Shown here: piece after piece, positions 3,669 through 42,036 of the stretch
Position numbering within the stretch: position 1 is the first letter of the stretch
Layout of the letters: each line of letters starts with the position of its first letter
Sequence record: MT478991.1
Strand: one strand, 5' to 3'
Source: Escherichia phage vB_EcoM_011D4
DNA: 64,000 nt
Made by a program: the position numbers and the translations under genes
Notes under the pieces: generated by a model
Seen by the model: only the letters and a program-made list of their open reading frames with translations
Told to the model about the DNA's origin: nothing
The model's database searches: none

Positions 3669-3998
3669 TTATAGTCTCCTGAATGGATCATCACGTAAAT
3701 CAATATCTTTTAAGAACTCATCCCATGAATGGCGGATGTTGTTCTTAATTCTCCAGATAAGAGCAGGGATTGAACGCTCTCCCATCTGGAAGTATGGATC
3801 ATATGATCCGTATGCCCAATATGCTACTACAATTCCACAATCAGCGCAATAGTATTCTATTTCACTTGCTGGCGACCAAAGTCCATCAATATGATCGGTG
3901 ATCTTGCTTTCGATGTTATGGCTATGACAATCAGGGCAACGGATGCAATGACCTTGTTTATCGTAATTTGACGTTAGCGAATACTTAAACAATCTCAT
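3669..3998 (-). CDS. Cys-rich zinc-ribbon protein (109 aa)
   Basis: CxxC...CxxC pattern (CIRCPDC ... CADCG); start overlaps stop of upstream gene (TAATG). Confidence 0.55.
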   Translation of the reverse strand: MRLFKYSLTSNYDKQGHCIRCPDCHSHNIESKITDHIDGLWSPASEIEYYCADCGIVVAYWAYGSYDPYFQMGERSIPALIWRIKNNIRHSWDEFLKDIDLRDDPFRRL

Positions 3999-4714
3999 TA
4001 TAGATCCTTATTTGCTTCAAATACTGCCTTTGCGAATCCTCGCGGGGTAAGTGACCTTATAGTCTTTGTTTTCGTTCCTTTCCCGCCTAGCTTAGAATGC
4101 TGTTTACTGTACCCTTTATTAATCTGCAACGGTTTCTTTTCTGGCATTATAAAGCCTTGTCCGGTCCATAAGCAAGTCTTTTTCGGGTACATATCACGGG
4201 CGGCAATATACTCAGGAAACGTAGGATGCTTATCATCTTCCGGCAAATAACCGCCATATTCCCACGGATGGAACATGTAATCAGGCTTACGCCACATGCT
4301 AGAGATAACGCTTACAGGATTCTCTATCATGTAGGGAACTCCGAGCCATTCACCCAAATAAGCGGTTATTTTAGCTGCCCGTACATCATGAACTTGAATC
4401 AATGGTCCTTGTTCTCGTTTCTTTCGTTCAAAGTGCGCAGCGCCACTAACAGCTAAATTGGTGCACGGTGGGAATGCAAAGATAATATCCGGTTTCCCCC
4501 ATTCAAGGTCCATTGCTCTTTCCAGCCAGTTCAAATCAATCCAGGTGTTTACATAGGTAATGTTTGGATGTTCAAATCTGGTATTATACTTTTTGTATGT
4601 ACCGTGGTCGGCGTCATCCGCATTAAAGCAGACTACCTTATGACCTGCTTTAGCCCATTCTAGCCCCATTATCCCCGATCCGTCAAAGTTGCAGAATATT
4701 AATTTTTGTTTCAT
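3998..4714 (-). CDS. C5-cytosine methyltransferase-like protein (short, no obvious TRD)
   Basis: FxGxG-type motif I (FCNFDGSGIMGLEWAKAGHKVV), PC motif IV (FAFPPCTNLAVSG), ENV-like motif VI (YMIENPVSV); only 238 aa. Confidence 0.5.
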   Translation of the reverse strand: MKQKLIFCNFDGSGIMGLEWAKAGHKVVCFNADDADHGTYKKYNTRFEHPNITYVNTWIDLNWLERAMDLEWGKPDIIFAFPPCTNLAVSGAAHFERKKREQGPLIQVHDVRAAKITAYLGEWLGVPYMIENPVSVISSMWRKPDYMFHPWEYGGYLPEDDKHPTFPEYIAARDMYPKKTCLWTGQGFIMPEKKPLQINKGYSKQHSKLGGKGTKTKTIRSLTPRGFAKAVFEANKDL

Positions 4715-5273: not shown

Positions 5274-5287
5274 CACTTTTTATAAAA

Positions 5288-5455
5288 TTATTTGTTAATT
5301 TCTGGTGCGTTGCTAGGATAGTAACCTTCTTTAACTCCGAGGTATTTCGCAACCATCCCTACAATCTTCTGTGCTACTACAATGTCAAATTTCAGATAAT
5401 CTTCACCGTAGGTTTCAATGATATATGCTTCACATGCTGCTTTAGTCTCGAACAT
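5288..5455 (-). CDS. hypothetical small protein (55 aa), paralog of 8544-8711
   Basis: Hand translation MFETKAACEAYIIETYGEDYLKFDIVVAQKIVGMVAKYLGVKEGYYPSNAPEINK; about 85 percent nt identity with 8544-8711 by eye. Confidence 0.5.
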   Translation of the reverse strand: MFETKAACEAYIIETYGEDYLKFDIVVAQKIVGMVAKYLGVKEGYYPSNAPEINK

Positions 5456-5488
5456 TTTGATTCTCCTATTTCGTTTCGGTATGTGTGC

Positions 5489-6244: not shown

Positions 6245-6271
6245 AATAAAAAAGCCGACGCTAAGGTCGGC
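6245..6271 (-). terminator. rho-independent terminator
   Basis: GCCGACCTTAGCGTCGGC then TTTTTTATT. Confidence 0.6.
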
Positions 6272-6279
6272 TAATAAAA

Positions 6280-6591
6280 TCATTTAGACAAATAATCATT
6301 CTGTGCAATCCGGTCGGCGTATGCTGGTGTTACGTCAATCGCAATCACTTTAACGCGTGCTTTCTTGCGACCTGGGTTTTCTCGTAACCAGTGCTCATGA
6401 CCGTGCACATTTTTATACTTTGATGCTTCTTCGAAGGTACGGATCGGACCTGGGTAATCAGCGTAAAGGATCTCTAGATCTTCGGTGATGTAAAAATATA
6501 CATCGTAATTGCTGTTCTCTAGCTTAAGCAGAGACTTTCGGAACATTGGGAGATTTTCGCGGGTAAATTCAAAGATATTATCTTTCATAGT
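6280..6591 (-). CDS. hypothetical protein, paralog family A (HxHW...IAIDV motif)
   Basis: Start moved to ATG at 6591 (RBS GAGGATAATACT); track start 6735 would overlap upstream gene and a terminator. Confidence 0.55.
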   Translation of the reverse strand, partial: TMKDNIFEFTRENLPMFRKSLLKLENSNYDVYFYITEDLEILYADYPGPIRTFEEASKYKNVHGHEHWLRENPGRKKARVKVIAIDVTPAYADRIAQNDYLSK

Positions 6592-6610
6592 ATTATCCTC
6601 AATAGTTGGA

Positions 6611-6632
6611 TGAAAAGGGGGCTTAACGCCCC
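6611..6632 (-). terminator. rho-independent terminator
   Basis: GGGGCGTTAAGCCCCC then TTTTCAT. Confidence 0.55.
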
Positions 6633-6637
6633 ATATA

Positions 6638-6925
6638 TTAAAACAGTCCTTCCTGTACACCGTAATAGAGTTCGTCGCTGATAATTTCATTAATGCGACG
6701 GTGTGCATATTCCTGATTTGCGAAGTTGTCAGCAAGTTCTACTTTAGTTTCTCCGTCATGAGTCCATTTAGTGATAACTTTACCATCTGCAAATTTGAAG
6801 TTGAACTCTTTAGCTACCGCATCGCGTACCAGACGTGCAAACTTATTGTTGCGGATTGCATTGTCGGTTTCGTGTGCAGCGTGAGCGAATTTGTTAACTT
6901 TCAGAGTGATAGTAATGTATGCCAT
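6638..6925 (-). CDS. hypothetical protein, paralog family B
   Basis: 95 aa; weak similarity to 9912-10223 (AKEFN region); promoter cassette upstream; terminator downstream. Confidence 0.55.
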   Translation of the reverse strand: MAYITITLKVNKFAHAAHETDNAIRNNKFARLVRDAVAKEFNFKFADGKVITKWTHDGETKVELADNFANQEYAHRRINEIISDELYYGVQEGLF

Positions 6926-6971
6926 AATTTGATTCTCCTAGTTAGAAAGTGTATCTCGTTTCGATGGGTGT

Positions 6972-7000
6972 ATTATGCTATACACCCGACCTCATGTCAA
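6972..7000 (-). promoter_or_regulatory. early promoter cassette
   Basis: TTGACA-17-CATAAT plus conserved leader. Confidence 0.55.
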
Positions 7001-7006
7001 CACTTT

Positions 7007-7285
7007 TTATAAAATAATTTTTTGATATTTTTCTATGATGTTTGTGTAGGTCACATCAACCGCTAGCACCGTTGCTTCGAATCCACCGTCTAGCCAATGG
7101 CTATGATCTCTTTCATCAAAGAAGCCGAGGCCAATACGAAGACCATCCTTAAACTCTGCGCGTACATTTAGATCATCATCGATAAACAGATAAAACCATG
7201 AATTTTTACTAGGATTGATGATACAACCTTTCAGATTAGGGAGAATATCACGACTAAGAATAAACTTATCACCTACTTTGAACAT
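7007..7285 (-). CDS. hypothetical protein, paralog family A
   Basis: Start moved to ATG at 7285 (RBS GAGGAAAATATT); motif HSHWLDGGFEATVLAVDV. Confidence 0.5.
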   Translation of the reverse strand: MFKVGDKFILSRDILPNLKGCIINPSKNSWFYLFIDDDLNVRAEFKDGLRIGLGFFDERDHSHWLDGGFEATVLAVDVTYTNIIEKYQKIIL

Positions 7286-7299
7286 AATATTTTCCTCAC

Positions 7300-7608
7300 T
7301 TATAAAGTTTGACCGTTGTTTTTCGCGTAATGCTGAATGCGTGCTTGATCTGCTTCCGCTGGTGATAGATTCCATGCGATCACTACAACTTCTGACGCAT
7401 CATGATCATTATCACTTACCCAATGATTGTGATTCATACAGTTATTTGCTATCGCGTGAGAAAATGATTTCATCACTGGAGACGTATAATCATAGTAACG
7501 GATTTTCAGATTTTCATCAACGTACAAATAGATCGTATAAGGTTTATATTCAGTAACCAGTAACAGACAGTTACGCAATTCTGGGAAAATCTTTTTAGTT
7601 AATTTCAT
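7300..7608 (-). CDS. hypothetical protein, paralog family A
   Basis: Motif NHNHW...VVVIAWNL; RBS GGAGAACTAGAAT. Confidence 0.5.
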   Translation of the reverse strand: MKLTKKIFPELRNCLLLVTEYKPYTIYLYVDENLKIRYYDYTSPVMKSFSHAIANNCMNHNHWVSDNDHDASEVVVIAWNLSPAEADQARIQHYAKNNGQTL

Positions 7609-7810
7609 ATTCTAGTTCTCCGTAATACACAGTAATCCATTTTTCTTCATACTTTGTATCTTTCCAGCACACAATCCCGTTTACTGTGCAATCTTTGGAA
7701 TTGACGAATGATTCATATTGTTCTGCATCTTCCATCATTGCATGAGCGGTCTTTTCATCGAATATATCGCAGATCGCTTTATATGCTCGATAATCTTTAA
7801 ATTTGCTCAT
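7595..7810 (-). CDS. hypothetical protein, paralog family C
   Basis: MSKFKDYRAYK... similar to product of 7813-8022. Confidence 0.45.
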   Translation of the reverse strand: MSKFKDYRAYKAICDIFDEKTAHAMMEDAEQYESFVNSKDCTVNGIVCWKDTKYEEKWITVYYGELEYEIN

Positions 7811-7812
7811 AA

Positions 7813-8022
7813 TTAACACCAATCAAGAGTTTTTGAGAAAACCTCTATCCATTGTTGAGTATATGCGGTTTCTTTCCATGACACAATACCAGTCGAATAA
7901 TGGTTTTTGTTTCCAGAAAAGGACGGGCATTTTGATGCATCTTCCATCATCTTTTCGGCGAACTCTGGTGCGTATACTCGCAAAATCTGTTGATATGCTT
8001 TGTATTCTTTAAATTTGCTCAT
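7813..8022 (-). CDS. hypothetical protein, paralog family C
   Basis: MSKFKEYKAYQ...; tandem to 7595-7810. Confidence 0.45.
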   Translation of the reverse strand: MSKFKEYKAYQQILRVYAPEFAEKMMEDASKCPSFSGNKNHYSTGIVSWKETAYTQQWIEVFSKTLDWC

Positions 8023-8287
8023 AATCATTCACTACCTTATCAGCTTCTTTTGTTGTTTTTACATCAACTGCGATAACTCGTAAAGGTTCGTCATGGTTCC
8101 ACCAGTGGTCATGAATATCGGCTTGTGATTTATCACCAAAGGAATCACGAATATCATTTTTACATTTATAGCTAATGTGACCGTCATAGTCAACATAAAG
8201 GTAATTATCGAAAATCGGCGTTTTTAAGATCATACCGAAAAATCTTTCTTTGTGTGTCTTATCCAGCGTTGCAGTAATTCGCATCAT
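8009..8287 (-). CDS. hypothetical protein, paralog family A
   Basis: Motif HDHWWNHDEPLRVIAVDV. Confidence 0.5.
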   Translation of the reverse strand: MMRITATLDKTHKERFFGMILKTPIFDNYLYVDYDGHISYKCKNDIRDSFGDKSQADIHDHWWNHDEPLRVIAVDVKTTKEADKVVNDYEQI

Positions 8288-8299
8288 AATATATTCCTC

Positions 8300-8479
8300 T
8301 TAGAAAGGGATGGTCATTTCTTGAGCTTGTACATTCTCGTTAGGATTAAACTTCATCCAACCGATATTGTCTACCAGCATATGCACATTTTTATCATATC
8401 CTACGTGGGTAGTCAATACTGTATGTGCTTTACCTTCAATGATGAGTTCCATGTACTTCTGAACTTCGATAGCTTTCAT
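8300..8479 (-). CDS. hypothetical small protein (59 aa), below ORF-track cutoff
   Basis: Hand translation MKAIEVQKYMELIIEGKAHTVLTTHVGYDKNVHMLVDNIGWMKFNPNENVQAQEMTIPF; RBS GGAGAATCAAA; promoter cassette upstream. Confidence 0.45.
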   Translation of the reverse strand: MKAIEVQKYMELIIEGKAHTVLTTHVGYDKNVHMLVDNIGWMKFNPNENVQAQEMTIPF

Positions 8480-8511
8480 TTTGATTCTCCGTTTGTTGTC
8501 TTTATGGGAGT

Positions 8512-8540
8512 ATCTTACTACTCCCTTTAATCATTGTCAA
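8512..8540 (-). promoter_or_regulatory. early promoter cassette; hairpin GGGAGTAGTAAGATACTCCC across -10
   Basis: TTGACA-17-TAAGAT. Confidence 0.5.
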
Positions 8541-8543
8541 CTA

Positions 8544-8711
8544 TTATTTGTTAATTTCTGGTGCGTTGCTTGGATAGTAACCTTCTTTAACACCCAGATA
8601 TTTTGCAACCATTCCGGTGATCTTCTGTGCTACTACGATATCGAATTTCAGGTAGTCTTCACCGTGGTTTGCTACAATGTATGCTTCGCATTCTGCTTTA
8701 GTCTGGAACAT
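8544..8711 (-). CDS. hypothetical small protein (55 aa), paralog of 5288-5455
   Basis: MFQTKAECEAYIVANHGEDYLKFDIVVAQKITGMVAKYLGVKEGYYPSNAPEINK; start moved to ATG at 8711. Confidence 0.5.
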   Translation of the reverse strand: MFQTKAECEAYIVANHGEDYLKFDIVVAQKITGMVAKYLGVKEGYYPSNAPEINK

Positions 8712-8745
8712 TTTTGATTCTCCTATATCTCGTTGGTATGTGTGC

Positions 8746-8774
8746 ATTATAGGGGATCACAGATCCCCTGTCAA
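8746..8774 (-). promoter_or_regulatory. early promoter cassette; palindromic spacer GGGGATCTGTGATCCCC
   Basis: TTGACA-17-TATAAT. Confidence 0.55.
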
Positions 8775-8779
8775 CAACT

Positions 8780-9073
8780 TTATAATGCTTTATATGCGTA
8801 TTTCATAAATTTGTCTGCCACTTCATTGGCATGTTCAGATTCTACGCCTGATTCGAGAACAATAGCTAGGTCGGTTTCGTCATTCCCGCCGTACCAATGA
8901 TTTGATGTTCGATTTTTTTCAATTGGAAATTGGTCACTTTTATCTGTGCGACAAAATACATCTAAATGCTCGTCTATGTAAAAGATCCAATCCTCATAAA
9001 GAATAACGGTATTAGCCAGATTTTTATTGCCTTCAACGAAAGGTTCAGCTACAAATAGCTTAGTTTGTTCCAT
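8780..9073 (-). CDS. hypothetical protein, paralog family A-like
   Basis: Start moved to ATG at 9073 (RBS GAGGAAATTACT); motif NHWYGGNDETDLAIVLE. Confidence 0.5.
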   Translation of the reverse strand: MEQTKLFVAEPFVEGNKNLANTVILYEDWIFYIDEHLDVFCRTDKSDQFPIEKNRTSNHWYGGNDETDLAIVLESGVESEHANEVADKFMKYAYKAL

Positions 9074-9089
9074 AGTAATTTCCTCAAAA

Positions 9090-9281
9090 TTATACAGCTT
9101 CGTAAACTTCCCAATGTCCAACACCAGCACGCTTAACGAAAAGGTTTTCTTTGATGTTATTCATAAACGTCTGGATGGATTTAATGCGGTTGGAAGGTTT
9201 CCAGTCTTCGTTAGCATTGCGGCGATACATTATAACATTACCAGATCGCTTATATTCAGCAACCATTTTAAGACCACACAT
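9090..9281 (-). CDS. hypothetical protein (63 aa)
   Basis: ATG with GAGGATAATATT RBS; hairpin TGGGAGGGTAATACTCTCCCA just upstream. Confidence 0.45.
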   Translation of the reverse strand: MCGLKMVAEYKRSGNVIMYRRNANEDWKPSNRIKSIQTFMNNIKENLFVKRAGVGHWEVYEAV

Positions 9282-9337
9282 AATATTATCCTCAATTTGT
9301 GGGAGAGTATTACCCTCCCAATTATTGTTATACTACA

Positions 9338-9640
9338 TTACGCAAAATGGCGTGTCAATGCTTCTTTTGCTGTTCCGCTAAGATTCTCGATCTCTCCTGG
9401 CATAACATCAACCGCCAGAACTTCTACAACATCCTCTGATCCTAACCAGTGAGTATGACCTTTGTAGAACTTGATATCCCATTTAACGCTATCGCTAGCC
9501 CACCACACATCACCGTCGATAAAGTTGATGTAAAGCACACTACGCCACATTGAATTAATTACTTTCAATACTGCGCCTTTCATCTCTTCCACGGTATGGT
9601 CTTCCATTTTGAAGACCTCACCTACCTGAACTTTTGCCAT
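9338..9640 (-). CDS. hypothetical protein, paralog family A
   Basis: Motif HTHWLGSEDVVEVLAVDV; RBS GAGGTGACTAA. Confidence 0.5.
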   Translation of the reverse strand: MAKVQVGEVFKMEDHTVEEMKGAVLKVINSMWRSVLYINFIDGDVWWASDSVKWDIKFYKGHTHWLGSEDVVEVLAVDVMPGEIENLSGTAKEALTRHFA

Positions 9641-9657: not shown

Positions 9658-9837
9658 TTACATAACAATCACGCCAGCCGTTGAAAGTTGATGTTTCAAC
9701 TGAGCATTTTCTGCTACCGTCAAATCAATGATTTCTTGTGACGCTGCAATCATATAGCCATTGGTGATATTGTTTTGCATCAGTTCAATGGTTTCTTCGT
9801 TGTAGCGGATTTTAGCGATGATTTCGTTGAAGTTCAT
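9658..9837 (-). CDS. hypothetical small protein (59 aa), below ORF-track cutoff
   Basis: Hand translation MNFNEIIAKIRYNEETIELMQNNITNGYMIAASQEIIDLTVAENAQLKHQLSTAGVIVM; promoter cassette upstream. Confidence 0.45.
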   Translation of the reverse strand: MNFNEIIAKIRYNEETIELMQNNITNGYMIAASQEIIDLTVAENAQLKHQLSTAGVIVM

Positions 9838-9871
9838 AATTGATTCTCCTAGTTCGTTTCGGTATGTGTGT

Positions 9872-9901
9872 ATTATAGGGGAGTTTAACCTCCCCTGTCA
9901 A
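9872..9901 (-). promoter_or_regulatory. early promoter cassette; palindromic spacer GGGGAGGTTAAACTCCCC
   Basis: TTGACA-18-TATAAT. Confidence 0.5.
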
Positions 9902-9911
9902 CAACTTTTTT

Positions 9912-10223
9912 TTAAAGTTTTTCCATGATAACGGTCATAATTACATCTTCTGCGCGAGCGGTCAGATTATCAGCGTCAGCATGTGGGCGGTTGGTTGTTA
10001 CAGAGATAACACCGTTGCGCACTGGTTTGATATTGATATCAAGATGATCCGCGAAACGTTCGCCAGTTACAGAATGAATTTTGGTGTTAAATTCTTTTGC
10101 CAGTGCCTTGCGAACTTCACGAATCAGGATAGCGTTTTTCAGTTGGTTCTCTGCGCTCATGGTCTTCTGGGTGTTCATGGTTCCGTCGAAGTCAATCATT
10201 GGCAGCGTTACGATGTATTTCAT
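9912..10223 (-). CDS. hypothetical protein, paralog family B
   Basis: 103 aa; ATG with GGAGAATAAAAA RBS; promoter cassette upstream. Confidence 0.55.
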   Translation of the reverse strand: MKYIVTLPMIDFDGTMNTQKTMSAENQLKNAILIREVRKALAKEFNTKIHSVTGERFADHLDINIKPVRNGVISVTTNRPHADADNLTARAEDVIMTVIMEKL

Positions 10224-10268: not shown

Positions 10269-10297
10269 AGTATAGGGGATCGGTGATCCCCTGTCAA
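10269..10297 (-). promoter_or_regulatory. early promoter cassette; palindromic spacer GGGGATCACCGATCCCC
   Basis: TTGACA-17-TATACT. Confidence 0.5.
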
Positions 10298-10310: not shown

Positions 10311-10655
10311 TTATTTTTTCATGAGCTTAATTGCTTCTTCCATAGCCAACACATTTCGATAGTTAGGGTATCGTGTTAGATCGTCATACATTCGCTTAAG
10401 GGTGGAAACTTCCTCAAACTCTGGGTTTTCTAGATACAGTTGAACAAATTGTTTCTCTACCATCTCTGCTTTTAGCTTGTCTGCTTGTTCCTGTTCATAT
10501 GATTTAGTTGGACCCAACACCAACAAAATGATAAAGGTGATCAACGGGCTAATGATCAATGATAGGATAACATAACCGATAACGCTACGGTTTAAACGGC
10601 TTGCATACATGCCTACCAGGAAAACAAAAAGGATATAGATAAACAGAAAGAACAT
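10311..10655 (-). CDS. small membrane protein (2 predicted TM helices)
   Basis: Hydrophobic N-terminal 50 aa then charged C-terminus. Confidence 0.5.
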   Translation of the reverse strand: MFFLFIYILFVFLVGMYASRLNRSVIGYVILSLIISPLITFIILLVLGPTKSYEQEQADKLKAEMVEKQFVQLYLENPEFEEVSTLKRMYDDLTRYPNYRNVLAMEEAIKLMKK

Positions 10656-10662
10656 ATAATGG

Positions 10663-11136
10663 CTACTCCTTATTTTCGCGCTCGTACTTTTCGAAATAAA
10701 ATTCTACTGGCTGGTCATGAATTGACAGCAAGCCAAAGCGTTTAGCCGCTCGCAATCCCATATTGCGCTGAATGTACTTCTGGAAGTTCTCGCGTATACA
10801 CTTACGCCAGTATTCTAAGCCCATACAACTTTTATAAAGATTGCATTGCACACACGCCGGATTCATGTTATCAAGTATATCATGTTCCGGTTTATGCATT
10901 CCTACAACCTTATACTTCCACGATCCATCATCATTACGGGCAATTCGTCCATTTTCATCATAGACTACCTTTGAGCGTCGCAATACTGGTTTGATGTGGT
11001 CTGCGTGCCAGCGATCCCCTAGTTCCTCGCCACAATAGGCACAACGTCCACCATATTTCATTTTCAGGATCTGGCGTTGCTCTTTCTTTGACAATTTTTT
11101 AGGTTTAGGGGCTTTCGCCCCTTCATTATCACACAT
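10663..11136 (-). CDS. HNH endonuclease (free-standing, homing-endonuclease-like)
   Basis: CAYCGEELGDRWHADHIKP ... NPACVQCN motif; start overlaps ligase 3 prime end by 8 nt. Confidence 0.7.
   Translation of the reverse strand: MCDNEGAKAPKPKKLSKKEQRQILKMKYGGRCAYCGEELGDRWHADHIKPVLRRSKVVYDENGRIARNDDGSWKYKVVGMHKPEHDILDNMNPACVQCNLYKSCMGLEYWRKCIRENFQKYIQRNMGLRAAKRFGLLSIHDQPVEFYFEKYERENKE
11107..11120 (-). repeat. GGGGCGAAAGCCCC hairpin at ligase / HNH junction
   Basis: Lies in first codons of HNH ORF and last codons of ligase. Confidence 0.45.
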
Positions 11137-12625
11137 CGAATACCTCTTTTACTGTATTTGCAGTGGTCTTGTCGTAGCGAATACGTTTGATGATTGGGAG
11201 AAATAAAGAGAACTCCGGTTCATCTTCTTTACGTGATTTGCTGCGGATATACCCGTTGCATGTCATCTCAATGACTTTTCCAATCAGGTTATGACGGTCA
11301 GCCCATAACATTTCTCGGTCGAGTTCATTTCGACGATCGAACGGAATTACACGTTCAATACCAACATCATCTTTTTCGGTTGTGGTGTCTGTCAATCCCG
11401 ATCCGGTGTTAGTCGTCATTCGTCCGCACGCACTACGGACAGTAAAACCGCCTACCTTATTGGGGTCTTTACTATGCGGATATACATCAACAATTTCCGC
11501 GTCGAAGTCAATCACTTCTTTAAATTTAACCTGATCTTTACTACGGCGATCTTCAAATACACCATGTAAATTTTTAAGGATAATACCTTCTAAGCCCATG
11601 TTTACATAACGATGATATACTTCGCGAGCTTCATCGATATTGTTAACTACAGTGTTTTCGATGATCTGAACACGAGGATCGTTAAGTTCTTCAACAATCT
11701 GTTTTAGTTCTTCGAATCGATCTTTATATTGCTTCGTTGCCTTCTCGTTTCCATAATACACATCACGGTCGATAACATCCCAGACAGTGTAAACAATACA
11801 TTGGGCTTCTTCTTTTGGAATAGTTCCTTTAAGTGATTTGTTGAGGATACCATTTCCGGTCTGACGATCTGCAACAACGGATTGTTTCACTGCTTCCGCT
11901 ACTGGCGTTAATGGCATTTCCTCTTCTTCAAATATCCATGACAGAGTACCATCATAAACGCTTTCAACGAAGTTCTGCGCTGGTGTTTGCGAAAGGGTAG
12001 GCATATATACCAATTCGCCATCTAGAACAATTCCACGGCCTCGTAGACGCTCTAAAACCGCAAACAAATCATCAAGTCCTTGATAGGTATTACCTGAGCG
12101 GGTATAGATTGCTAATGTTTCCCCGTCAATATCAGCCATACCACGAGCGCCATCGCTTTTAAGTTGTGCATACGCCGGATACTTGATATTAGCAATAGTC
12201 TTATCAGAACATGACGATGCAAGGTGGCACGGCTGCTGGGGGATCAGTTTCTTCCATACCTTGTTTGCAGTGGTAGCTGAACAGCCGCATTCCAGATCAC
12301 GATTCAGGACCATCATTGCAACTTTAGCATCATCCTCTGACAAGCAAGTCAGAGTATCGGTAACTAGCTGTATTGCTGCATTACCAGTTACTTGACGCGT
12401 GGCAAGTTTATTTTTAAAGACCTGTAATGCACCGGATAAAGACAATACAGACGAATAGCGAGATGGTTTATCGTATTTCTTTACGCCAAACGTAACCTGT
12501 TTGCAATATGCCAGATAAAAGCATTCTTTCAGCGTTTCATTGCTTGCAGATTCTTTCAGGATCTTTTCTTTCAGCGATGTTTTGTCGGTTGCTGCAAGCT
12601 GATTAATGATATTAAGAATTGACAT
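11129..12625 (-). CDS. 30: ATP-dependent DNA ligase
   Basis: About 498 aa; recalled T4 gp30 similarity (LKADGAR, VLDGELVY, EGIILKN, C-terminal IRLREDKT-like); start moved to ATG at 12625 after GAGGTGAAA. Confidence 0.85.
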   Translation of the reverse strand: MSILNIINQLAATDKTSLKEKILKESASNETLKECFYLAYCKQVTFGVKKYDKPSRYSSVLSLSGALQVFKNKLATRQVTGNAAIQLVTDTLTCLSEDDAKVAMMVLNRDLECGCSATTANKVWKKLIPQQPCHLASSCSDKTIANIKYPAYAQLKSDGARGMADIDGETLAIYTRSGNTYQGLDDLFAVLERLRGRGIVLDGELVYMPTLSQTPAQNFVESVYDGTLSWIFEEEEMPLTPVAEAVKQSVVADRQTGNGILNKSLKGTIPKEEAQCIVYTVWDVIDRDVYYGNEKATKQYKDRFEELKQIVEELNDPRVQIIENTVVNNIDEAREVYHRYVNMGLEGIILKNLHGVFEDRRSKDQVKFKEVIDFDAEIVDVYPHSKDPNKVGGFTVRSACGRMTTNTGSGLTDTTTEKDDVGIERVIPFDRRNELDREMLWADRHNLIGKVIEMTCNGYIRSKSRKEDEPEFSLFLPIIKRIRYDKTTANTVKEVFDV

Positions 12626-13091
12626 TTTCACCTCGTTTTGTTAAACGTTCACGAATATCATTGAGGATACTACAAAATTCCGATTCAGTCAATATAGTCT
12701 TTAACGGATCAGTTCCACCTATACTATGACGTAATTTCTTATTTCCGGTAGAGAGTAATGCTTTACAAAATTCTGGGTTATTCTGTGCCATCGTAACAAA
12801 TGCCAGATGTACCAGTCTGTAATAATGCTCACTCATTCGATGAATCGGGCGACCCTGAAAATATAACATGTGATTCTCAATCTTTTCAGTTCTTCCGGTT
12901 CTTTTTGCTTTGCCGCCGTGCATCAAAAAGATTTCTCTTTGTCTCTGAGGGTTCTTAAATCTTAGCCCCTGTAAAAATCCTTCTGTGCTGTTAATATCGC
13001 AACCAAATAGACGGAATGGTCTTTTATTGAAATTACTCAATTCACCCGATGGATAAGGTCCACCCGCATAGATATCAATTTCAGAAGTCAT
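12612..13091 (-). CDS. NADAR/YbiA-like domain protein (putative ADP-ribose-processing hydrolase)
   Basis: SEHYY and LSNFNKRPF motifs resembling NADAR (DUF1768) signatures; 159 aa. Confidence 0.45.
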   Translation of the reverse strand: MTSEIDIYAGGPYPSGELSNFNKRPFRLFGCDINSTEGFLQGLRFKNPQRQREIFLMHGGKAKRTGRTEKIENHMLYFQGRPIHRMSEHYYRLVHLAFVTMAQNNPEFCKALLSTGNKKLRHSIGGTDPLKTILTESEFCSILNDIRERLTKRGENVNS

Positions 13092-31190: not shown

Positions 31191-32138
31191 TTAGAACTCA
31201 CCAATTTTCTGCAACATTTTAACTAACGCATTTGTTACAAAATAGTTATAAATTTTACCGCGTGGTGCTGGTTTAGATTTTTCCCATGCTAACAAAATTT
31301 CATACTCAATGTTATCAGGAATAAATTCAAAATCAATAAGTTCGCGGTTTTCGTCAAAGCGTCGTGCTTCTTCCTCTGTCATCAAAGACTTTGGATCTTC
31401 GGCATCGAAAATTTGCTCTAACCATTTGGTTGCAATTGGTTTAGCTCGTTCACCTTCCAGTCGTGAGATAATGAAATCACTACGGCACTTGATAGAAGCT
31501 ACACCGTCTTTTGCGTCGCCCTTAACACATTTTACCATAAGGTCTTTGTAAGGGCTACCATATTTGCATTTCTTCCATGCTTTCTGTACTGGCGCCCACT
31601 GTTTCACGTTTTTGTATTTGTGCAACTGTGTGTAGTCACCATCACCGGAGTTGATCAGCACCTGGCGACCTTCTACAGAAAACTTTTTAGTTAACACAGC
31701 GATTATATCATCTGCTTCAACTTTGTCAACCTTAATAACGTGATAAGGCATGTTCTCTTTAAACTCTTCGGTGATCTTATTGATCGCAGCAAAGATCATC
31801 TCCCAATCACGCGGATCTGCGTCTCGTTTTTCCTTACGGTTGCGTTTATAGTAAGATGCGATATCACGTCGCCAGTAACCTTTGCTTGAATCAAAGGCAA
31901 GTACCGTAATTGGGTATTGCTCTTTGAATTTTGTCATATTATAACGCATGGTGTCAAGGATAAGATGACGGATCATGCCTTCATTAATAGGATCTTCCGG
32001 TTTAAAGGTATGCGAGATAGTAGCAATCATAAGCTGCGACATATCAATCAAATGCACACCTTCCGGCAGTTTATCTTCTGGATCATCGAAGAAATCATTA
32101 AGTGTAGCGGTAGTTTTTGTAAACGGGTTATACGTCAT
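31191..32138 (-). CDS. rnh: RNase H / FEN-type 5 prime-3 prime exonuclease
   Basis: HVIKVDKVEADDIIAVL, SGDGDYTQLHKY.NVKQW, PRGKIYNYF match recalled T4 RNase H. Confidence 0.85.
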   Translation of the reverse strand: MTYNPFTKTTATLNDFFDDPEDKLPEGVHLIDMSQLMIATISHTFKPEDPINEGMIRHLILDTMRYNMTKFKEQYPITVLAFDSSKGYWRRDIASYYKRNRKEKRDADPRDWEMIFAAINKITEEFKENMPYHVIKVDKVEADDIIAVLTKKFSVEGRQVLINSGDGDYTQLHKYKNVKQWAPVQKAWKKCKYGSPYKDLMVKCVKGDAKDGVASIKCRSDFIISRLEGERAKPIATKWLEQIFDAEDPKSLMTEEEARRFDENRELIDFEFIPDNIEYEILLAWEKSKPAPRGKIYNYFVTNALVKMLQKIGEF

Positions 32139-32364
32139 AATTAAGTTCTCTCCACTCTCACAACAACATATTCGCCAAACGAGTTAGATACTTCACGATC
32201 ATACCCGTATTTCTCCATAACTCGCAGAATTGCATTGTTTAATTCGGCACGGAAATAATTATAATCCTTATCAGGGATTCTGTCAACTACCCATTTTGCA
32301 CCTTCTGACAAATCAACTTTAACCATAATATATCATCCTCTTTTGTTTCTATCAAGCCTCATTT

Positions 32365-32372
32365 TATAAATA
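32365..32372 (+). promoter_or_regulatory. T4-type late promoter TATAAATA for gene 34
   Basis: Exact TATAAATA about 30 nt upstream of ATG. Confidence 0.6.
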
Positions 32373-32400
32373 TGAACATACTATAAAAGGAGACCCAATA

Positions 32401-35400
32401 ATGGCAGATTTTTCTCAACATTTCAAGGCCACATTTGGCTTTGACGCTGGTAATGAAAAGGTCGTCAATGTAGCATTGGCTGATAAGAATGTCAACACCG
32501 ATGCGGTCAACGTTGAATTTTTCAATTACCATAATGGTATTACTCAGTATGACACAACTCGCGGTTATGATCAATACGGAACTACAATCTATCAAAACCG
32601 TCCATATTATGCAAAAGAAGATATCACAAAGCCAGCAGGTGATTTTGACCCGACTAAATGGCAAGCACTGCGCACGGACCCACGTTGGGATTATGTTGCA
32701 GCAACTTCCGGTGATACTCCTTTACAGTCTGGTGATTATATCGCAGCAGATGGTCAATTTGCAAACTTGACTTTCTCTATGCCAACTAAACCAGCAGAGG
32801 GAGACACTATAACAGTAAAAGATATCGGTGGCAAGTGTGGTGTTAACGAATTATCGTTCTTGAGTTCAGGACATGAGTTTTACCATAACGGTAATGTGTA
32901 TAACCGAAAATGGTATTGCACTACCCCGTATGCAATGAACTATTTCATCTTTGTTCGTAATCGTTGGCATGTTTATCAGACAGGAACAGAGCCACGCGGT
33001 GTGTATGCACAGCCAGCGATTGATGCTATTCAAATGCAGAATGGTGATCAGGTATTTCGTCGTAGTTCGTTGGGTAATATTACCTTAGTGCTTCCTAAGT
33101 TTGCCAACAATGGCGACATGATCCAGACTACAGACCTTGACGGATTAACCGCAACCAACCACGTTACGGTTAAAGTTCATGAGCACGCAGAAGAACAATC
33201 AATTGGCACGTCCGGTCTAAAAGAGATTATCGGTAAGCGTAGCGGTCATGGTGTATTCATCTTTGACAAGACGGAAAACTTATGGCGTTTGTGGGATGGT
33301 GATCAGTCTGTTCGTCTTAAACCGATCATCGATGACACTCGCTTGCAACCTAATAGCTATGTTGCCGTATTTGGTGATCGTGATGTTACTCTGACGCTGC
33401 CGACCAATGTCGAGCCGGGTGATCGTATTCAAGTTTCTATGCAGTATATGCACGGAAACCAGAATTGCCGTATTATCACCGCCACAGAGGATACAAAAAT
33501 CCTTATGCAGAAAAACATGGTTCAGTTTCCTAAGCGTAGCGAGTACCCATTCAATGGGACCGATACATGGACGGGAGTATCTGAATTGTCTTTCAACGCT
33601 GCAAATGATTATGTACCTTATCTGGAGTTCTCTTATTCAGAAGGTGATGATGGTAAGAAATACTGGTTGGTGGCACATGCTCACCCGATTGTAGAACGAG
33701 TAGATCCGACTCGTAAAGATCGTGTTGGTGTAATTGCACTGGCTACCCAGGATGAAACAAACAAAAACCATGAAGATAATCCTAGCGACGAAGTTGCGGT
33801 GACTCCAAAGGTTCTGGCTAATAAAACAGCCAACGAAACTCGACGCGGTATTGCTCGCATTGCAACTCAAGCGGAAACGCATCAAGATACTGGTTCCAGC
33901 TTCCTGGATGATGTTATCGTTACGCCTAAAAAGTTAAATAATTGTGTTGCTACCGAAGCCCGTCGTGGTGTGATGGAAATTGCAACCCAGCACGAAACCA
34001 ATGAAGGTTTAGACGATACCCGCGCTATTACTCCTAAGAAATTAGAAGAACGTCGCGCTTCCGAAGATCTCGCTGGTATTGCTGAAATTGTTCAGGCTGG
34101 CGGTAGTGCTGCCGCTCGACGTGGCGAAGCTGGTACAGGGATCTATAACATCAACGACCATGCTAAAATTGTTACGCCACAAAACATCAACGAAGTCAAG
34201 GCGACCGAAACTTCCCGTGGTGTTGGCTATCTGGCAACTGACGCGGAAGTGCAAGGGGCTACAGAATCAACCCCGCAAGATGCTTTACTAATCACGACTC
34301 GCACGCTAACGAAACGTACTGCTACCGAATCGCGCACTGGTATCGCTGAAATTGCAACTCAGGAAGAAACAAACTTAGGTCAAAGTGATAACCATATCAT
34401 CACGCCTAAAAAGCTGCATACTCGCCGCGCAACGGAAACTTTACATGGTTTAGCAGAAATTGCAACTCAACCGGAGTTTGACGCAGGTCTTGACGATGCT
34501 CGCATTTCTACCCCATTGAAGATTAAAACCTTCTTTGAGAATGCACAGCGTTTGAAAGTAGATCCGACTCAGGGGCTTAACCTTACTGGTGATTTGTGGC
34601 AAGGTATCATGATTCGCGGTCTGGACGCAACCGAAGACACAAAAGGTGTCGCTAAAGTTGCTACTACTCAGCTTACGGATGCTGGTCAAGATGATACTAC
34701 AATCATCACGCCTAAAAAGCTGCAAGGCAAAAAGGCCACCGAAGGTAAAGAAGGTATTATCCGAGTTGGTACTCAAGCCGAAACCGTGGCTGGTACACTG
34801 GCTAATGTAGCAATTTCTCCGAAGAACTTCAAATATGTTGTTCAGACAGAGGATACATGGAAAGCAACCGAAGCGCGTCGTGGTTTCTTGAAAGTTGCCA
34901 CTCAGGAAAACTGTTTTGTTGGTGATAATCTGCAAGGTTCTACTCAAGAACTAGGAAACTACCAGCATGACGGAATTGCTGTTACTCCGAAAGGATTAAA
35001 CTACGCACTTGCTAATTTCTTACCTAAGATGGCAACCGCTCAGAATAGTTTGAAATTGGGTAACGTAGAGGCCGCTAAATGGGCGCGTAGAGACATTGAC
35101 CAGACCATAGAGAGCAATTACACGTTTAATAAAAACGTTAACGTGAAGGGCGATTTAGGGTGCTTAAAATCTGGTTCCTTTGAAACTCTGTCTGTGACTA
35201 AGAACTCGACCGATGGTCCGAGTAATGGTCATCTGGTGTTGGGTGAGCGTGGAGTTGACGGTCACACCGGAATTACTCTGCATGGCACAACCGCATCGGA
35301 AGGCATGAAAAACTCGTGGTCTATTATCGTTGGTGGTACTGGAACAGCGCAAGTTGTTGATAGTGATGCTATCGCTTTCGGTAAAATCAATGATGGTGGA

Positions 35401-36141
35401 GTCGTCGAGCATTACGCCTTTGCTATGGAACACAATGGCGACGCGACAGCATATAGAGACTTTATTGCAGGTCGTAACCTGTATGCGAAACAAGGCGGTT
35501 TATACATTGTTGATCAGTCTAATCCGGCAATGACTCGTTCCCCAGATGGTATGCTGAATATCGGTCACGGTGGAAGTGTTAACATCAAGGCAGGTTATCA
35601 AACGTTAACTACAGAGATCGCCGGACAGAAATATCAGATCGTACACGCAGGAAACGCTGACGAAGTTCTTAACCGTCAGTTTGTTAAGAATGCTGGCGAT
35701 ACAATGGTCGGTAAGCTGACTATGGATAATGCGCCTATTGTTTCTGTTAAGCATGAAGCTAGCGCGGCAACCGCTCCAGCAATCGGTAACATCGGTTTCT
35801 GGAATATGCGAGTTACTACCCAGAACATCAAAGAAACTTATCCAGAGAAGAAAAACGGTACTCTGATGCAATGGGGTACTGACGCGGACGGGCTTACCCA
35901 GCTTTGGTCCCCTGATGGTACTCATAAACATTATATCCGTTCCGGTACTGGTGGTCAATGGACTGCATGGGGTGAAATTTACACCAAACAGAATAAGCCT
36001 ACCGCTCAGGAAATCGGGGCAGTAGTTGCAGAAGGTGGTTTAATGAACTCTATGACGGTTCGTGATTGGATCAAAGTTGGTAATGTTAAAATCATCGCCA
36101 ATAATCTGACTCGTACCGTAGACTTTATCTGGGAAGACTAA
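32401..36141 (+). CDS. 34: long tail fibre proximal subunit gp34
   Basis: 1246 aa; late promoter TATAAATA at about 32365; AAAGGAGA RBS; internal ITPKKL/IAEIATQ repeats. Confidence 0.8.
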   Translation: MADFSQHFKATFGFDAGNEKVVNVALADKNVNTDAVNVEFFNYHNGITQYDTTRGYDQYGTTIYQNRPYYAKEDITKPAGDFDPTKWQALRTDPRWDYVAATSGDTPLQSGDYIAADGQFANLTFSMPTKPAEGDTITVKDIGGKCGVNELSFLSSGHEFYHNGNVYNRKWYCTTPYAMNYFIFVRNRWHVYQTGTEPRGVYAQPAIDAIQMQNGDQVFRRSSLGNITLVLPKFANNGDMIQTTDLDGLTATNHVTVKVHEHAEEQSIGTSGLKEIIGKRSGHGVFIFDKTENLWRLWDGDQSVRLKPIIDDTRLQPNSYVAVFGDRDVTLTLPTNVEPGDRIQVSMQYMHGNQNCRIITATEDTKILMQKNMVQFPKRSEYPFNGTDTWTGVSELSFNAANDYVPYLEFSYSEGDDGKKYWLVAHAHPIVERVDPTRKDRVGVIALATQDETNKNHEDNPSDEVAVTPKVLANKTANETRRGIARIATQAETHQDTGSSFLDDVIVTPKKLNNCVATEARRGVMEIATQHETNEGLDDTRAITPKKLEERRASEDLAGIAEIVQAGGSAAARRGEAGTGIYNINDHAKIVTPQNINEVKATETSRGVGYLATDAEVQGATESTPQDALLITTRTLTKRTATESRTGIAEIATQEETNLGQSDNHIITPKKLHTRRATETLHGLAEIATQPEFDAGLDDARISTPLKIKTFFENAQRLKVDPTQGLNLTGDLWQGIMIRGLDATEDTKGVAKVATTQLTDAGQDDTTIITPKKLQGKKATEGKEGIIRVGTQAETVAGTLANVAISPKNFKYVVQTEDTWKATEARRGFLKVATQENCFVGDNLQGSTQELGNYQHDGIAVTPKGLNYALANFLPKMATAQNSLKLGNVEAAKWARRDIDQTIESNYTFNKNVNVKGDLGCLKSGSFETLSVTKNSTDGPSNGHLVLGERGVDGHTGITLHGTTASEGMKNSWSIIVGGTGTAQVVDSDAIAFGKINDGGVVEHYAFAMEHNGDATAYRDFIAGRNLYAKQGGLYIVDQSNPAMTRSPDGMLNIGHGGSVNIKAGYQTLTTEIAGQKYQIVHAGNADEVLNRQFVKNAGDTMVGKLTMDNAPIVSVKHEASAATAPAIGNIGFWNMRVTTQNIKETYPEKKNGTLMQWGTDADGLTQLWSPDGTHKHYIRSGTGGQWTAWGEIYTKQNKPTAQEIGAVVAEGGLMNSMTVRDWIKVGNVKIIANNLTRTVDFIWED
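33780..35000 (+). repeat. about 10 tandem degenerate 35-40 codon repeats inside gene 34
   Basis: Recurring peptide unit ATE.R.GIAEIATQ.E ... ITPKKL in gp34 translation. Confidence 0.6.
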
Positions 36142-36146
36142 TTAAA

Positions 36147-36162
36147 GGGGGCGAAAGCCCCC
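36147..36162 (+). repeat. GGGGGCGAAAGCCCCC hairpin between genes 34 and 35
   Basis: Same hairpin as at 23976, 24776 and 11107 (coding-strand sense in each case). Confidence 0.5.
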
Positions 36163-36174
36163 TATGGGGTTATT

Positions 36175-37314
36175 ATGACACAAGATATAGAATTACGCAA
36201 CACTGGAATTAGGTTTGCGCATTTCGACGAAGACTCTGCGACATTTACCAGCATTTCAGAAAATAACTCTGTGATGTATAAGCTGGAAGTGCGCGGATCT
36301 AATGCGGATTCTACCAAACCAGCAAGAATTAGATTTAATGGAGTGGAGATCGTTGGCACTGGCTATGAAAATGGCCTAAATTTTAAAGTTCTTACTCCAA
36401 CTGGACAACTACACGAAGAAAAGGTATTCTATGGTCGCGGTGCTGTTTTGGCAATGCGTGATTATCTTTCTTTGCTGAAAGGTGATTATATCATTGCGAT
36501 GGCAACTCATGGAGAATTGTTTGCAGATCCGATAAGTGATGTTGTATTTTCTAAGCTGGGATCGGTATCATTCCCGAATCACATTTTGTTACAGCAAATG
36601 CCTCGTGTATCATATGCAGCAATTTATTCTACGAAAATGGGTAAAATTGTTTGTGAGGGTATGCAAGCGACCCACGGGGAAGGACAAGATTCATCTATAC
36701 AAATTGAGAAAGTCTATGATACTATAGATGATCTTGCTATAACAGGAACACCACAACGATTTTTAGATTATCCGGTTGAGTATGTTAGCGAAGATGCCGA
36801 ACATTTCGAGCTAATACAATGGCCTCACGATGAGATCAGCGCACCACTTGAAGATTTTAACATAAAGGCAGGTGACAAACTATCAATATCCTTTGAATTG
36901 TTCCGTGATAGTGCCGCAGCCGCAGCCAACGTAACAGCGCGTTTCTATCACAACTACTTCACCGATGGACAATATAAAACTGGTGTTCGATACAATGCCA
37001 GCAAAAAAGACCAATGGGAAAAGTTTGAAGCAGTCTATACAGTACCGGAAGGTGTCGATGGTGTAGTAACTGGTTGTATCAGATATCCAACCAACTCAAA
37101 TGAAGGTATTGTTAAAATTAGAAACATACTAATAACGCCGATCAGTGGAGTCGTTAAAACTACTGGTCCTACTTCATTTGGTGTTAATGGTGTTAGAACA
37201 ACTCATATTCAGGATAACGGTGATTTTACTAACCCTGTAATGAGTCTTCTTAAACTACCCAGAGATAATAAACACATCACATCCAACAACTTTAAAGAGT
37301 TCGATGTTGATTAA
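36175..37314 (+). CDS. 35: long tail fibre hinge protein gp35
   Basis: 379 aa; synteny between 34 and 36; followed by rho-independent terminator. Confidence 0.6.
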   Translation: MTQDIELRNTGIRFAHFDEDSATFTSISENNSVMYKLEVRGSNADSTKPARIRFNGVEIVGTGYENGLNFKVLTPTGQLHEEKVFYGRGAVLAMRDYLSLLKGDYIIAMATHGELFADPISDVVFSKLGSVSFPNHILLQQMPRVSYAAIYSTKMGKIVCEGMQATHGEGQDSSIQIEKVYDTIDDLAITGTPQRFLDYPVEYVSEDAEHFELIQWPHDEISAPLEDFNIKAGDKLSISFELFRDSAAAAANVTARFYHNYFTDGQYKTGVRYNASKKDQWEKFEAVYTVPEGVDGVVTGCIRYPTNSNEGIVKIRNILITPISGVVKTTGPTSFGVNGVRTTHIQDNGDFTNPVMSLLKLPRDNKHITSNNFKEFDVD

Positions 37315-37324
37315 CATTTTTTAC

Positions 37325-37356
37325 AAGCCGATCCATGTGGTCGGCTTTATTTTTAT
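37325..37356 (+). terminator. rho-independent terminator downstream of gene 35
   Basis: GCCGATCCATGTGGTCGGC then TTTATTTTTAT. Confidence 0.6.
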
Positions 37357-37475
37357 ACAGTTGGTTAAAATGTAACCAAAACGAAGAAAGATCTTTAGAA
37401 TAATAGAAAATTTGTTTCGGTTAAAAAATAGTCAGTGCCTACGGCACGTCGCGAAGCGATATTTTGTTAACATTC

Positions 37476-37483
37476 TATAAATA
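37476..37483 (+). promoter_or_regulatory. T4-type late promoter TATAAATA for gene 36
   Basis: Exact TATAAATA about 35 nt upstream of ATG. Confidence 0.6.
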
Positions 37484-37516
37484 ATCGGAACTATAACTAA
37501 TTTTTGAGGTTACTTT

Positions 37517-39007: not shown

Positions 39008-39010
39008 TTT

Positions 39011-39038
39011 TAGCGGGGAGACAATCCCCGCTTTTCTA
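39011..39038 (+). terminator. rho-independent terminator between genes 36 and 37
   Basis: GCGGGGAGACAATCCCCGC then TTTTCT. Confidence 0.55.
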
Positions 39039-39077
39039 AATAATATTATTCTAATAACCGTTTAAGGATTTTATAAA

Positions 39078-41996: not shown

Positions 41997-42036
41997 GGAA
42001 ACTCCCAGGGAAGGGAACTACTAAGGAGAAACGGCT

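Follow-up and report, generated by a model that had tools for sequence, protein, structure and literature searches.

Between the DNA ligase gene and the alt gene of RB49-like coliphages lies a run of small genes that raises a double question: whether six of the proteins encoded there are related to one another, and what such a set of proteins would do for the phage. The run studied here belongs to Escherichia phage vB_EcoM_011D4 (record MT478991.1), of which a stretch of 64,000 nucleotides (nt), referred to as the window, was analysed. Positions 6280-9640 of the window consist of densely packed short genes, all on the minus strand, and include six genes, A1 to A6, that we call family A. This array is flanked on its upstream side by DNA ligase gene 30 (11129-12631) together with an HNH gene, and on its downstream side by alt (498-2549). 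The source of the window is a Krischvirus, i.e., an RB49-like T4-type coliphage (58 Krischvirus records match it at 90-98% nt identity, including RB49, phi1 and JSE). The gene 30-alt interval has been described as a hyperplastic region punctuated by promoter-early stem-loop (PeSL) cassettes (PMC2839356, PMC4122927); in T4 it holds a single open reading frame (ORF) of 62 aa, alt.1. The six genes are orthologs of RB49 ORFs, as given below, all of which are annotated as hypothetical proteins.

A1: 6280-6588, minus strand; 102 aa; RB49 ORF197; motif HGHEHWL...VKVIAIDV; phrog_9345 at 2.5e-49
A2: 7007-7285, minus strand; 92 aa; RB49 ORF199; motif HSHWL...VLAVDV; phrog_17255, also phrog_9345 at 4e-4
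A3: 7300-7608, minus strand; 102 aa; RB49 ORF200; motif NHNHWV...VVVIAWNL; phrog_9345 at 1e-50
A4: 8009-8287, minus strand; 92 aa; RB49 ORF203; motif HDHWW...VIAVDV; phrog_15972, also phrog_9345 at 2e-3
A5: 8780-9073, minus strand; 97 aa; RB49 ORF206; the most divergent member; motif SNHWY...AIVLESGV; phrog_15965
A6: 9338-9640, minus strand; 100 aa; RB49 ORF208; motif HTHWL...VLAVDV; phrog_16486

Six genes, one family

A1 to A6 constitute one homologous paralog family built on a domain of about 95 aa. Pairwise BLASTP links A1 with A3 (4e-12) and A2 with A6 (3e-4), A4 (6e-4) and A3 (1e-3), leaves A5 unlinked, and falls below significance for some pairs (A3-A6, E 2.7; A4-A5, E 8.8). A family hidden Markov model (HMM), for which 70 database relatives of A1-A4 and A6 but none of A5 type were used, was compared with the 619 six-frame ORFs of the window. 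Every family A member matched this profile: E-values ranged from 1e-22 to 1e-43 for A1-A4 and A6, and A5 followed with 1.5e-4 (17 bits), ahead of the next-best ORF with 0.67 (5.5 bits). Scored against shuffled versions of itself, A5 reached 17.9 bits versus a maximum of 10.1 among 2000 shuffles, and a metagenomic protein, P0084, bridges A5 (1e-18) and A3 (5e-6) by BLASTP. The H-x-H-W motif is present in exactly five of the 619 ORFs, every one of them in family A, and a looser pattern ('HW + strand') selects exactly the six. In the six-way alignment the His-Trp pair is invariant and is preceded by a further His in five of the six proteins; an h-Y-h-Y-h-D hairpin and a V-x-h-A-h-D-V strand are also recognisable. 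The first His and the D-V are absent from A5, and in A3 the V-D-V is replaced by W-N-L. Between paralogs only the core hydrophobic residues and His-Trp are conserved, while the N-termini are variable and unrelated to one another.

The structural models agree with this picture. AlphaFold models of A1 (predicted local distance difference test, pLDDT, 84; predicted template-modelling score, pTM, 0.79) and A2 (pLDDT 89, pTM 0.83) have their elements in identical order: after a short strand and a helix come three strands, a variable loop and the H-x-H-W helix, then a fifth strand and the C-terminal helix. The two members modelled thus agree in the order of their secondary-structure elements, and the fold predicted for the family has five beta-strands, a short helix that bears the invariant His-Trp and, at the C-terminus, a further helix. 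Searching the BFVD structure collection with a family A model returns the other paralog groups. A separate observation from the search with the A1 model is M4SRW3, an 87-aa protein of the unrelated marine Pseudoalteromonas phage pYD6-A, which Foldseek matched marginally (E 0.1, probability 0.92, 20% identity) and which could be a remote structural relative or noise.

A reading of the window from its sequence only had called the six ORFs diverged paralogs of a family that it did not recognise, and it is upheld on the first point by pairwise BLASTP, the HMM, the shuffles, the bridging protein and the A1 and A2 models, and on the second by the lack of any Pfam, NCBIfam, PADLOC or PDB match. All its ORFs exist on the minus strand, but A1 starts at 6588 and not at 6591; the letters of the motif strings it quoted are correct, but their order does not follow that of the coordinates, HDHWW belonging to the gene at 8009, HTHWL to that at 9338 and NHNHW to that at 7300. 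The opposite idea, that the shared motifs are a chance likeness among unrelated short ORFs, could appeal to the pairs that are non-significant by BLASTP (A3-A6, A4-A5), but it is refuted by the profile, shuffle, bridging-sequence and structure evidence and keeps virtually no probability.

All six ORFs have a GAGG-type Shine-Dalgarno sequence 6-9 nt ahead of the ATG. The proteins are soluble, no transmembrane segment being evident on inspection, and the isoelectric points (pI) of A1-A6 are 6.8, 5.2, 6.5, 5.6, 4.5 and 5.1, with only A5 strongly acidic.

The distribution of the family is narrow. Profile searches, one of them exhaustive and the other two word-indexed, covered the sequence databases. 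Among 1.84 billion representative proteins the profile produced 22 matches, about 17 of them genuine, all short and on T4-like phage contigs; two more profile searches, of a 5.8-billion-cluster collection, added only further alleles, and none of these profile searches found a family A relative outside T4-like phage contigs. Long repeat proteins (P0081, P0086, P0088-P0090) were rejected as relatives because their repetitive sequences make them false positives. Among 50,697 sequenced phages, matches are limited to Krischvirus records, and in the related metagenomic phages family A always lies in the gene 30-alt interval. T4 has no member (HMM against the whole genome in six frames, best E 0.5). 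Scans of all members with Pfam, NCBIfam and PADLOC gave nothing above noise, a sequence profile search of the PDB returned only the archaeal hypothetical protein 1yb3 (E 0.31), and PHROGs, whose matches carry only the label 'unknown function', divides the six among five families (9345, 17255, 15972, 15965 and 16486). The genes, the locus and the PeSL mechanism are already known from the literature and databases; what is new is the recognition of the six genes as a single family. In the two PeSL papers (PMC2839356, PMC4122927), term searches find no mention of the six ORFans as one protein family. The narrow range, the unmatched predicted fold, and the loop hypervariability and natural deletion series described below also appear to be new.

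Age, selection and allele turnover

The paralogs share only 13-34% aa identity, and the sole DNA repeat among them is a 17-nt match at the V-x-A-V-D-V codons, found in four members. Two divergent metagenomic relatives, L002 and L007, help to date the copies. L002 (contig SRR8048117_15661, 2.1 kb) carries, besides two other genes of the array (ORF I and E2), an A6-like gene, a 203-aa fusion, an A4-like and an A3-like gene, in the order ORF I, A6-like, E2, fusion, A4-like, A3-like; its conserved neighbour genes are 54-67% identical to those of the window. L007, with a ligase 72% identical to that of the window, has two A5-like genes and the same cassette families in permuted order. For each family A paralog, L002 or L007 carries a separate ortholog. 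Judged by the low identity of the paralogs and by these paralog-specific orthologs in divergent relatives, the duplications are old, predating the genus and the L002 and L007 lineages, and the copies have been maintained separately ever since. The repeated segmental duplication proposed in the sequence-only reading therefore does not stand as worded, as it overstates how recent the copies are. The fusion of L002 (P0078, 823-1434) has an N-terminal half that is A2-like and a C-terminal half nearest to alleles of the A5 slot, a hint that family A members act as dimers.

Within the genus, the ratio of nonsynonymous to synonymous substitution rates (dN/dS, or omega) is 0.03-0.39 across all six genes, which shows that they are real and under purifying selection. 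They nevertheless evolve several-fold faster than neighbouring genes, with dN up to about ten times that of the ligase: dN reaches 0.04-0.10 for A1-A3 versus 0.005 for the ligase at similar dS, and the array genes B1 and ORF I have dN = 0 in most comparisons at a dS similar to that of A1-A3. Within-ortholog variation and indels are concentrated at A1 positions 44-63 and 69-78, which are the loops flanking the His-Trp helix, while the strands, His66, Trp67 and Ala83 are fixed within ortholog groups. Pooled dN is 0.085 in loops versus 0.028 in the core, and omega 0.29 versus 0.17, with an omega of 0.83 for the A3 loops. Loop dS is raised too, which suggests that the loops have exchanged older alleles.

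Turnover also involves entire genes, through whole-gene allelic replacement within near-identical flanks. The phi1 copy of A4 is only 58% identical, and A5 shows 71-73% identity in that phage and in FL15; in contig L004, A2 and the adjacent gene C1 are missing and two A3-like genes take the place of the single one of the window. Gene content at the array locus differs even between near-identical genomes. The sequence-only reading had placed the array in an accessory locus of a T4-like genome: the genome has turned out to be that of a Krischvirus, and the accessory character of the locus is confirmed by its hyperplastic gene 30-alt position, by the losses of A1-A4 or A5-A6 described in the next section and by this turnover of gene content.

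Promoter cassettes, natural deletions and neighbouring genes

A repeat of about 70 nt recurs in the intergenic spacers of the array and reads, on the coding strand, as an AT-rich stretch, TTGACA, a G/C stem-loop, TATAAT, GGAGA and ATG. On these features the spacers are recognisable as PeSL cassettes like those of RB49 and phi1 (PMC2839356): promoters match at 11-12 of 12 positions at 10297, 9901, 8774, 7000 and 6220, and the stems are visible. The spacer elements and the neighbouring genes named in this section are the following.

PeSL: 9838-9911, minus strand; TTGACA, GGGGAGG..CTCCCC stem-loop, TATAAT and GGAGA Shine-Dalgarno; 12/12 promoter match; heads ORF I and A6
Weaker promoter with GGGAGGG..CTCTCCC stem-loop: 9282-9337, minus strand; between A6 and ORF H (9090-9281), upstream of H and A5; 10/12 match
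PeSL: 8712-8779, minus strand; equivalent of RB49 PeSL206/205; heads the D2-E2-A4-C2-C1-A3-A2 block
PeSL: 6926-7006, minus strand; upstream of B1 and A1
GC hairpin: 6618-6632, minus strand; between B1 and A1
Terminator-like hairpin with T run: 6253-6272, minus strand; directly 3' of A1
B1: 6638-6925, minus strand; 95 aa; RB49 ORF198; family B, phrog_7474; just upstream of A1 in transcription, in the same cassette
B2: 9912-10223, minus strand; 103 aa; RB49 ORFan210; family B, phrog_7474
C1 and C2: 7595-7810 and 7813-8022, minus strand; tandem pair, phrog_8471, 43% identity (1e-16)
D1: 5288-5455, minus strand; 55 aa; forms the D repeat together with D2
D2: 8544-8711, minus strand; 55 aa; 87% aa identity to D1

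Three putative transcription units can be drawn from these elements. The first would run from the PeSL at 9901 through ORF I to A6, followed by the weaker promoter at 9358, ORF H and A5; the second from the PeSL at 8774 to D2, with a promoter at 8540 for E2, A4, C2, C1, A3 and A2, a run in which stop and start codons overlap (e.g., the A4 stop with the C2 start, and the A3 start with the C1 end); and the third from the PeSL at 7000 through B1, the hairpin and A1 to the terminator at 6253-6272. In RB49, PeSL206/205 is a very strong promoter (about 13,000 Miller units in a lacZ assay) and the stem-loop of PeSL211/210 stopped transcription; PeSL cassettes were also found to excise as mini-circles in RB49 and phi1, as demonstrated for the RB49/phi1 ortholog of B2, ORFan210 (PMC2839356). 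Because sigma-70-type promoters (TTGACA/TATAAT) with stem-loops lie upstream of each block, and given the published RB49 assays, family A is probably transcribed early.

The array is present with intact reading frames in about 50 of the 58 Krischvirus genomes, and some of the others form a natural deletion series. Cognac retains A5 and A6 only, and FL04 has a blastn match to the D2-A6 segment only. In Cognac, alignment shows a single chimeric D gene whose body and downstream side are like D1 and whose upstream PeSL is like the D2 side, with the crossover at the start codon and Shine-Dalgarno sequence. In the window, the D repeat (5287-5458 and 8543-8714) is a 172-nt direct repeat of 85% nt identity with its copies 3256 nt apart, and the loss of A1-A4 in Cognac is consistent with a 3.26-kb deletion between these repeats and their PeSLs. 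Conversely, phiS retains A1-A4 only, with the break at PeSL 8712-8779, and G5211 and PTE-Eco09, whose blastn coverage is like that of phiS, appear to lack the A5-A6 segment as well. Since isolates without A1-A4 (Cognac, FL04) or without A5-A6 (phiS) are viable, no family A member is essential for a viable phage and each block is dispensable in nature.

The D pair and the C pair are the only duplications of the array that look later. In RB49 and FL15 an allele of 65% identity stands in place of C1, and L004 has no C1, while the adjacent C2 remains about 93% identical, which is a further case of single-cassette turnover. The sequence-only reading had grouped C1 with C2 and B1 with B2, and both groupings are sound: the former by the identity given above, the latter by the match of both proteins to phrog_7474 (about 1e-43 each), even though BLASTP gives no link between B1 and B2. 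B1 and ORF I (9658-9837) adjoin fast-evolving family A genes and keep 98-100% aa identity genus-wide, with dN about 0 at a dS of 0.03-0.2; they appear to be under far stronger constraint than their family A neighbours.

Further genes of the hyperplastic region deserve mention. A 238-aa gene (3998-4714, minus strand) is a DNA (cytosine) methyltransferase by annotation in related records, with only a weak PADLOC MTase_II match and no Pfam match. It is followed by a 109-aa zinc-ribbon protein (3669-3998, minus strand) and by a 172-aa phage protein (3149-3667, minus strand) that is mostly a GmrSD_N (DUF262) domain (Pfam 6e-20; PADLOC NsnA 6e-20); it lacks the nuclease half that GmrSD-type restriction enzymes have and could be a decoy or a competitor-directed factor. 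These three genes share the region with family A, and blastn match spans suggest that the methyltransferase-like and zinc-ribbon block is absent from some Krischvirus genomes. On the ligase side, at 10311-11136 (minus strand), the match of many genomes to the window ends exactly at the PeSL at about 10318 or at 9911. Elsewhere in the window, at about 32000-42000, the GC skew flips its sign and GC content rises up to 0.46 near 34-36 kb; the skew change presumably reflects a plus-strand gene block.

Function and comparison with known systems

The anatomical and evolutionary description of family A given above is close to certain. For its function, we favour binding proteins that counter host defence, an assignment to which we give somewhat less than an even chance; taken as a whole, anatomy and function blended together, the explanation is about evenly poised. 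According to it, host RNA polymerase would transcribe the genes within minutes of infection and yield soluble, cytoplasmic products. Each paralog would present a different loop surface on a common scaffold and thereby bind and neutralise a different target, most likely a host defence or host takeover factor, possibly one of a competing phage, and PeSL-mediated recombination would add, swap or delete members of this small inhibitor repertoire. The action would be non-enzymatic, and no catalysis is proposed: conservation of the core and His-Trp only, with the first His lost in A5, fits a scaffold and not an active site. The fixed core, variable loops, solubility, early promoters, dispensability and allele turnover together fit non-enzymatic binders of variable host targets, and a host-range or anti-defence arsenal, as the sequence-only reading had suggested, would fit the evolutionary pattern.

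Several points weigh against this interpretation. Omega is below 1 throughout, so that positive selection is not demonstrated, and the pooled comparisons are not independent. Weak constraint would account for the fast evolution and the natural losses as well as an arms race would. The early timing is deduced from promoter sequence and from assays on the orthologous RB49 elements, and the invariant His-Trp, with the frequent second His and the Asp, could form a ligand or metal site.

Krischviruses lack the genes for 5-hydroxymethylcytosine (hmC) synthesis and glucosylation that protect T4 DNA (PMC13390438), so protein countermeasures are expected among their early orphan genes. A bolder version of the counter-defence proposal, which we advance tentatively, is that family A represents an unrecognised counter-defence fold with hypervariable loops around His-Trp and up to six specificities per genome, reshuffled by PeSLs: an 'inhibitor library' standing in for the DNA hypermodification of T4-type phages, in which, as the P0078 fusion might indicate, members form homo- or hetero-oligomers.

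The possible ligand or metal site leads to a different reading, which we regard as unlikely, in which the H-x-H-W helix and the Asp of the next strand bind a metal or a nucleotide signal, the proteins being sponges or small hydrolases for immune messengers like Tad1, Tad2 or Acb2. A size of about 95 aa and early expression do resemble those of known sponges, all members have His66 and Trp67, and most also have the first His and the Asp of A-x-D-V. However, the A5 group has Ser or Asn at the position of the first His, and Asn or Gly takes the place of the Asp in A3, A5 and some A4 alleles, so no complete polar site is conserved; a Pfam scan of 37 members gives a signal neither for DUF2829 nor for another family, and hypervariable loops next to the motif are unusual for a fixed small-molecule pocket.

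Family A could also consist of phage-internal regulators, factors that bind nucleic acid, polymerase or ribosomes and tune early transcription, translation or replication of the phage itself. The N-termini of A2 and A6 are KOW-like (K-V-G-D-x-h...), one public record of an A2 ortholog is auto-named 'KOW2-KOW3 domains of Spt5', and the genes adjoin replication genes. The acidic to neutral pI (4.5-6.8) is nevertheless unfavourable for nucleic-acid binding, and the natural loss of four or two members, the allelic replacement and the absence from T4 oppose a core role, which makes this alternative improbable too.

Poorer still are the prospects of near-neutral PeSL cargo, i.e., genes that persist mainly through cassette recombination and spread and are of little benefit to the phage. 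The locus is indeed made of the cassettes that excise as mini-circles (PMC2839356), blocks are missing in viable isolates and L007 has the same cassette families in permuted order. Against this stand the dN/dS of 0.03-0.39, the intact frames in most genomes, the retention of each paralog across lineages whose conserved neighbours are only 54-72% identical, and the confidently predicted conserved fold, all of which point to selection on the proteins themselves.

Several known folds and mechanisms were considered and rejected. Family A shows neither the H-h-H-h-H-h-h motif of the histidine-triad (HIT) fold nor the H-x-H-x-D-H in a domain of 200 aa or more (roughly) of the metallo-beta-lactamase fold (Apyc1-type). 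There is no Pfam KOW or SH3-like structural match indicative of a KOW/SH3-like barrel, despite the KOW-like N-terminus of A2, and the pI of about 4 or lower of DNA-mimic anti-restriction proteins (Ocr/Arn type) is not seen, A5 alone being strongly acidic.

The interest of the family is also practical, as phage-therapy collections make use of Krischviruses (RB49, phi1, JSE and many recent isolates). Literature searches on the RB49 locus tags and on Krischvirus anti-defence yielded no functional study. Family A offers a compact candidate set: six paralogs with clear ortholog groups, hypervariable loops and a ready natural deletion series. If a target is found, it would provide a new fold for the anti-defence catalogue and illustrate in a concrete case how a gene repertoire is maintained and reshuffled by PeSL cassettes; if none is found, it would be one more orphan family in an already described locus.

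Among known systems, the internal-protein (IP) locus of T4-type phages offers a close parallel. It encodes small, fast-diversifying, dispensable proteins in a plastic locus, at least one of which, IPI*, neutralises GmrSD restriction. IPs are late proteins that carry an N-terminal capsid-targeting sequence (CTS) and are injected with the DNA. Family A shares the small size, the diversification, the dispensability and the plastic locus. It differs in its variable N-termini without a capsid-targeting signal, in its early sigma-70-type promoters and in the lack of sequence similarity, and T4 internal proteins were rejected as an identity for family A because its N-termini are unrelated to one another and its promoters are of the early type. 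The polymorphic IP locus is mentioned in PMC4122927. Weak structural neighbours of family A include the Tas1 immunity protein (6ox6_B), AcrIIA7 (8kbi_A) and ModTad2 (9eib_A). The PeSL ORFan cassettes of RB49 and phi1 (Arbiol et al. 2010, PMC2839356; Comeau et al. 2014, PMC4122927) are the same locus: the genes of the window are orthologs of ORFs 197-210, and the gains and losses described above are bounded by PeSLs or repeats. Experiments in those phages covered PeSL206/205 and ORFan210, with no function assigned (PMC2839356). Family A belongs with the orphan early-gene families of the T4-type hyperplastic regions, and its members are reasonable candidates for host-disarming proteins.

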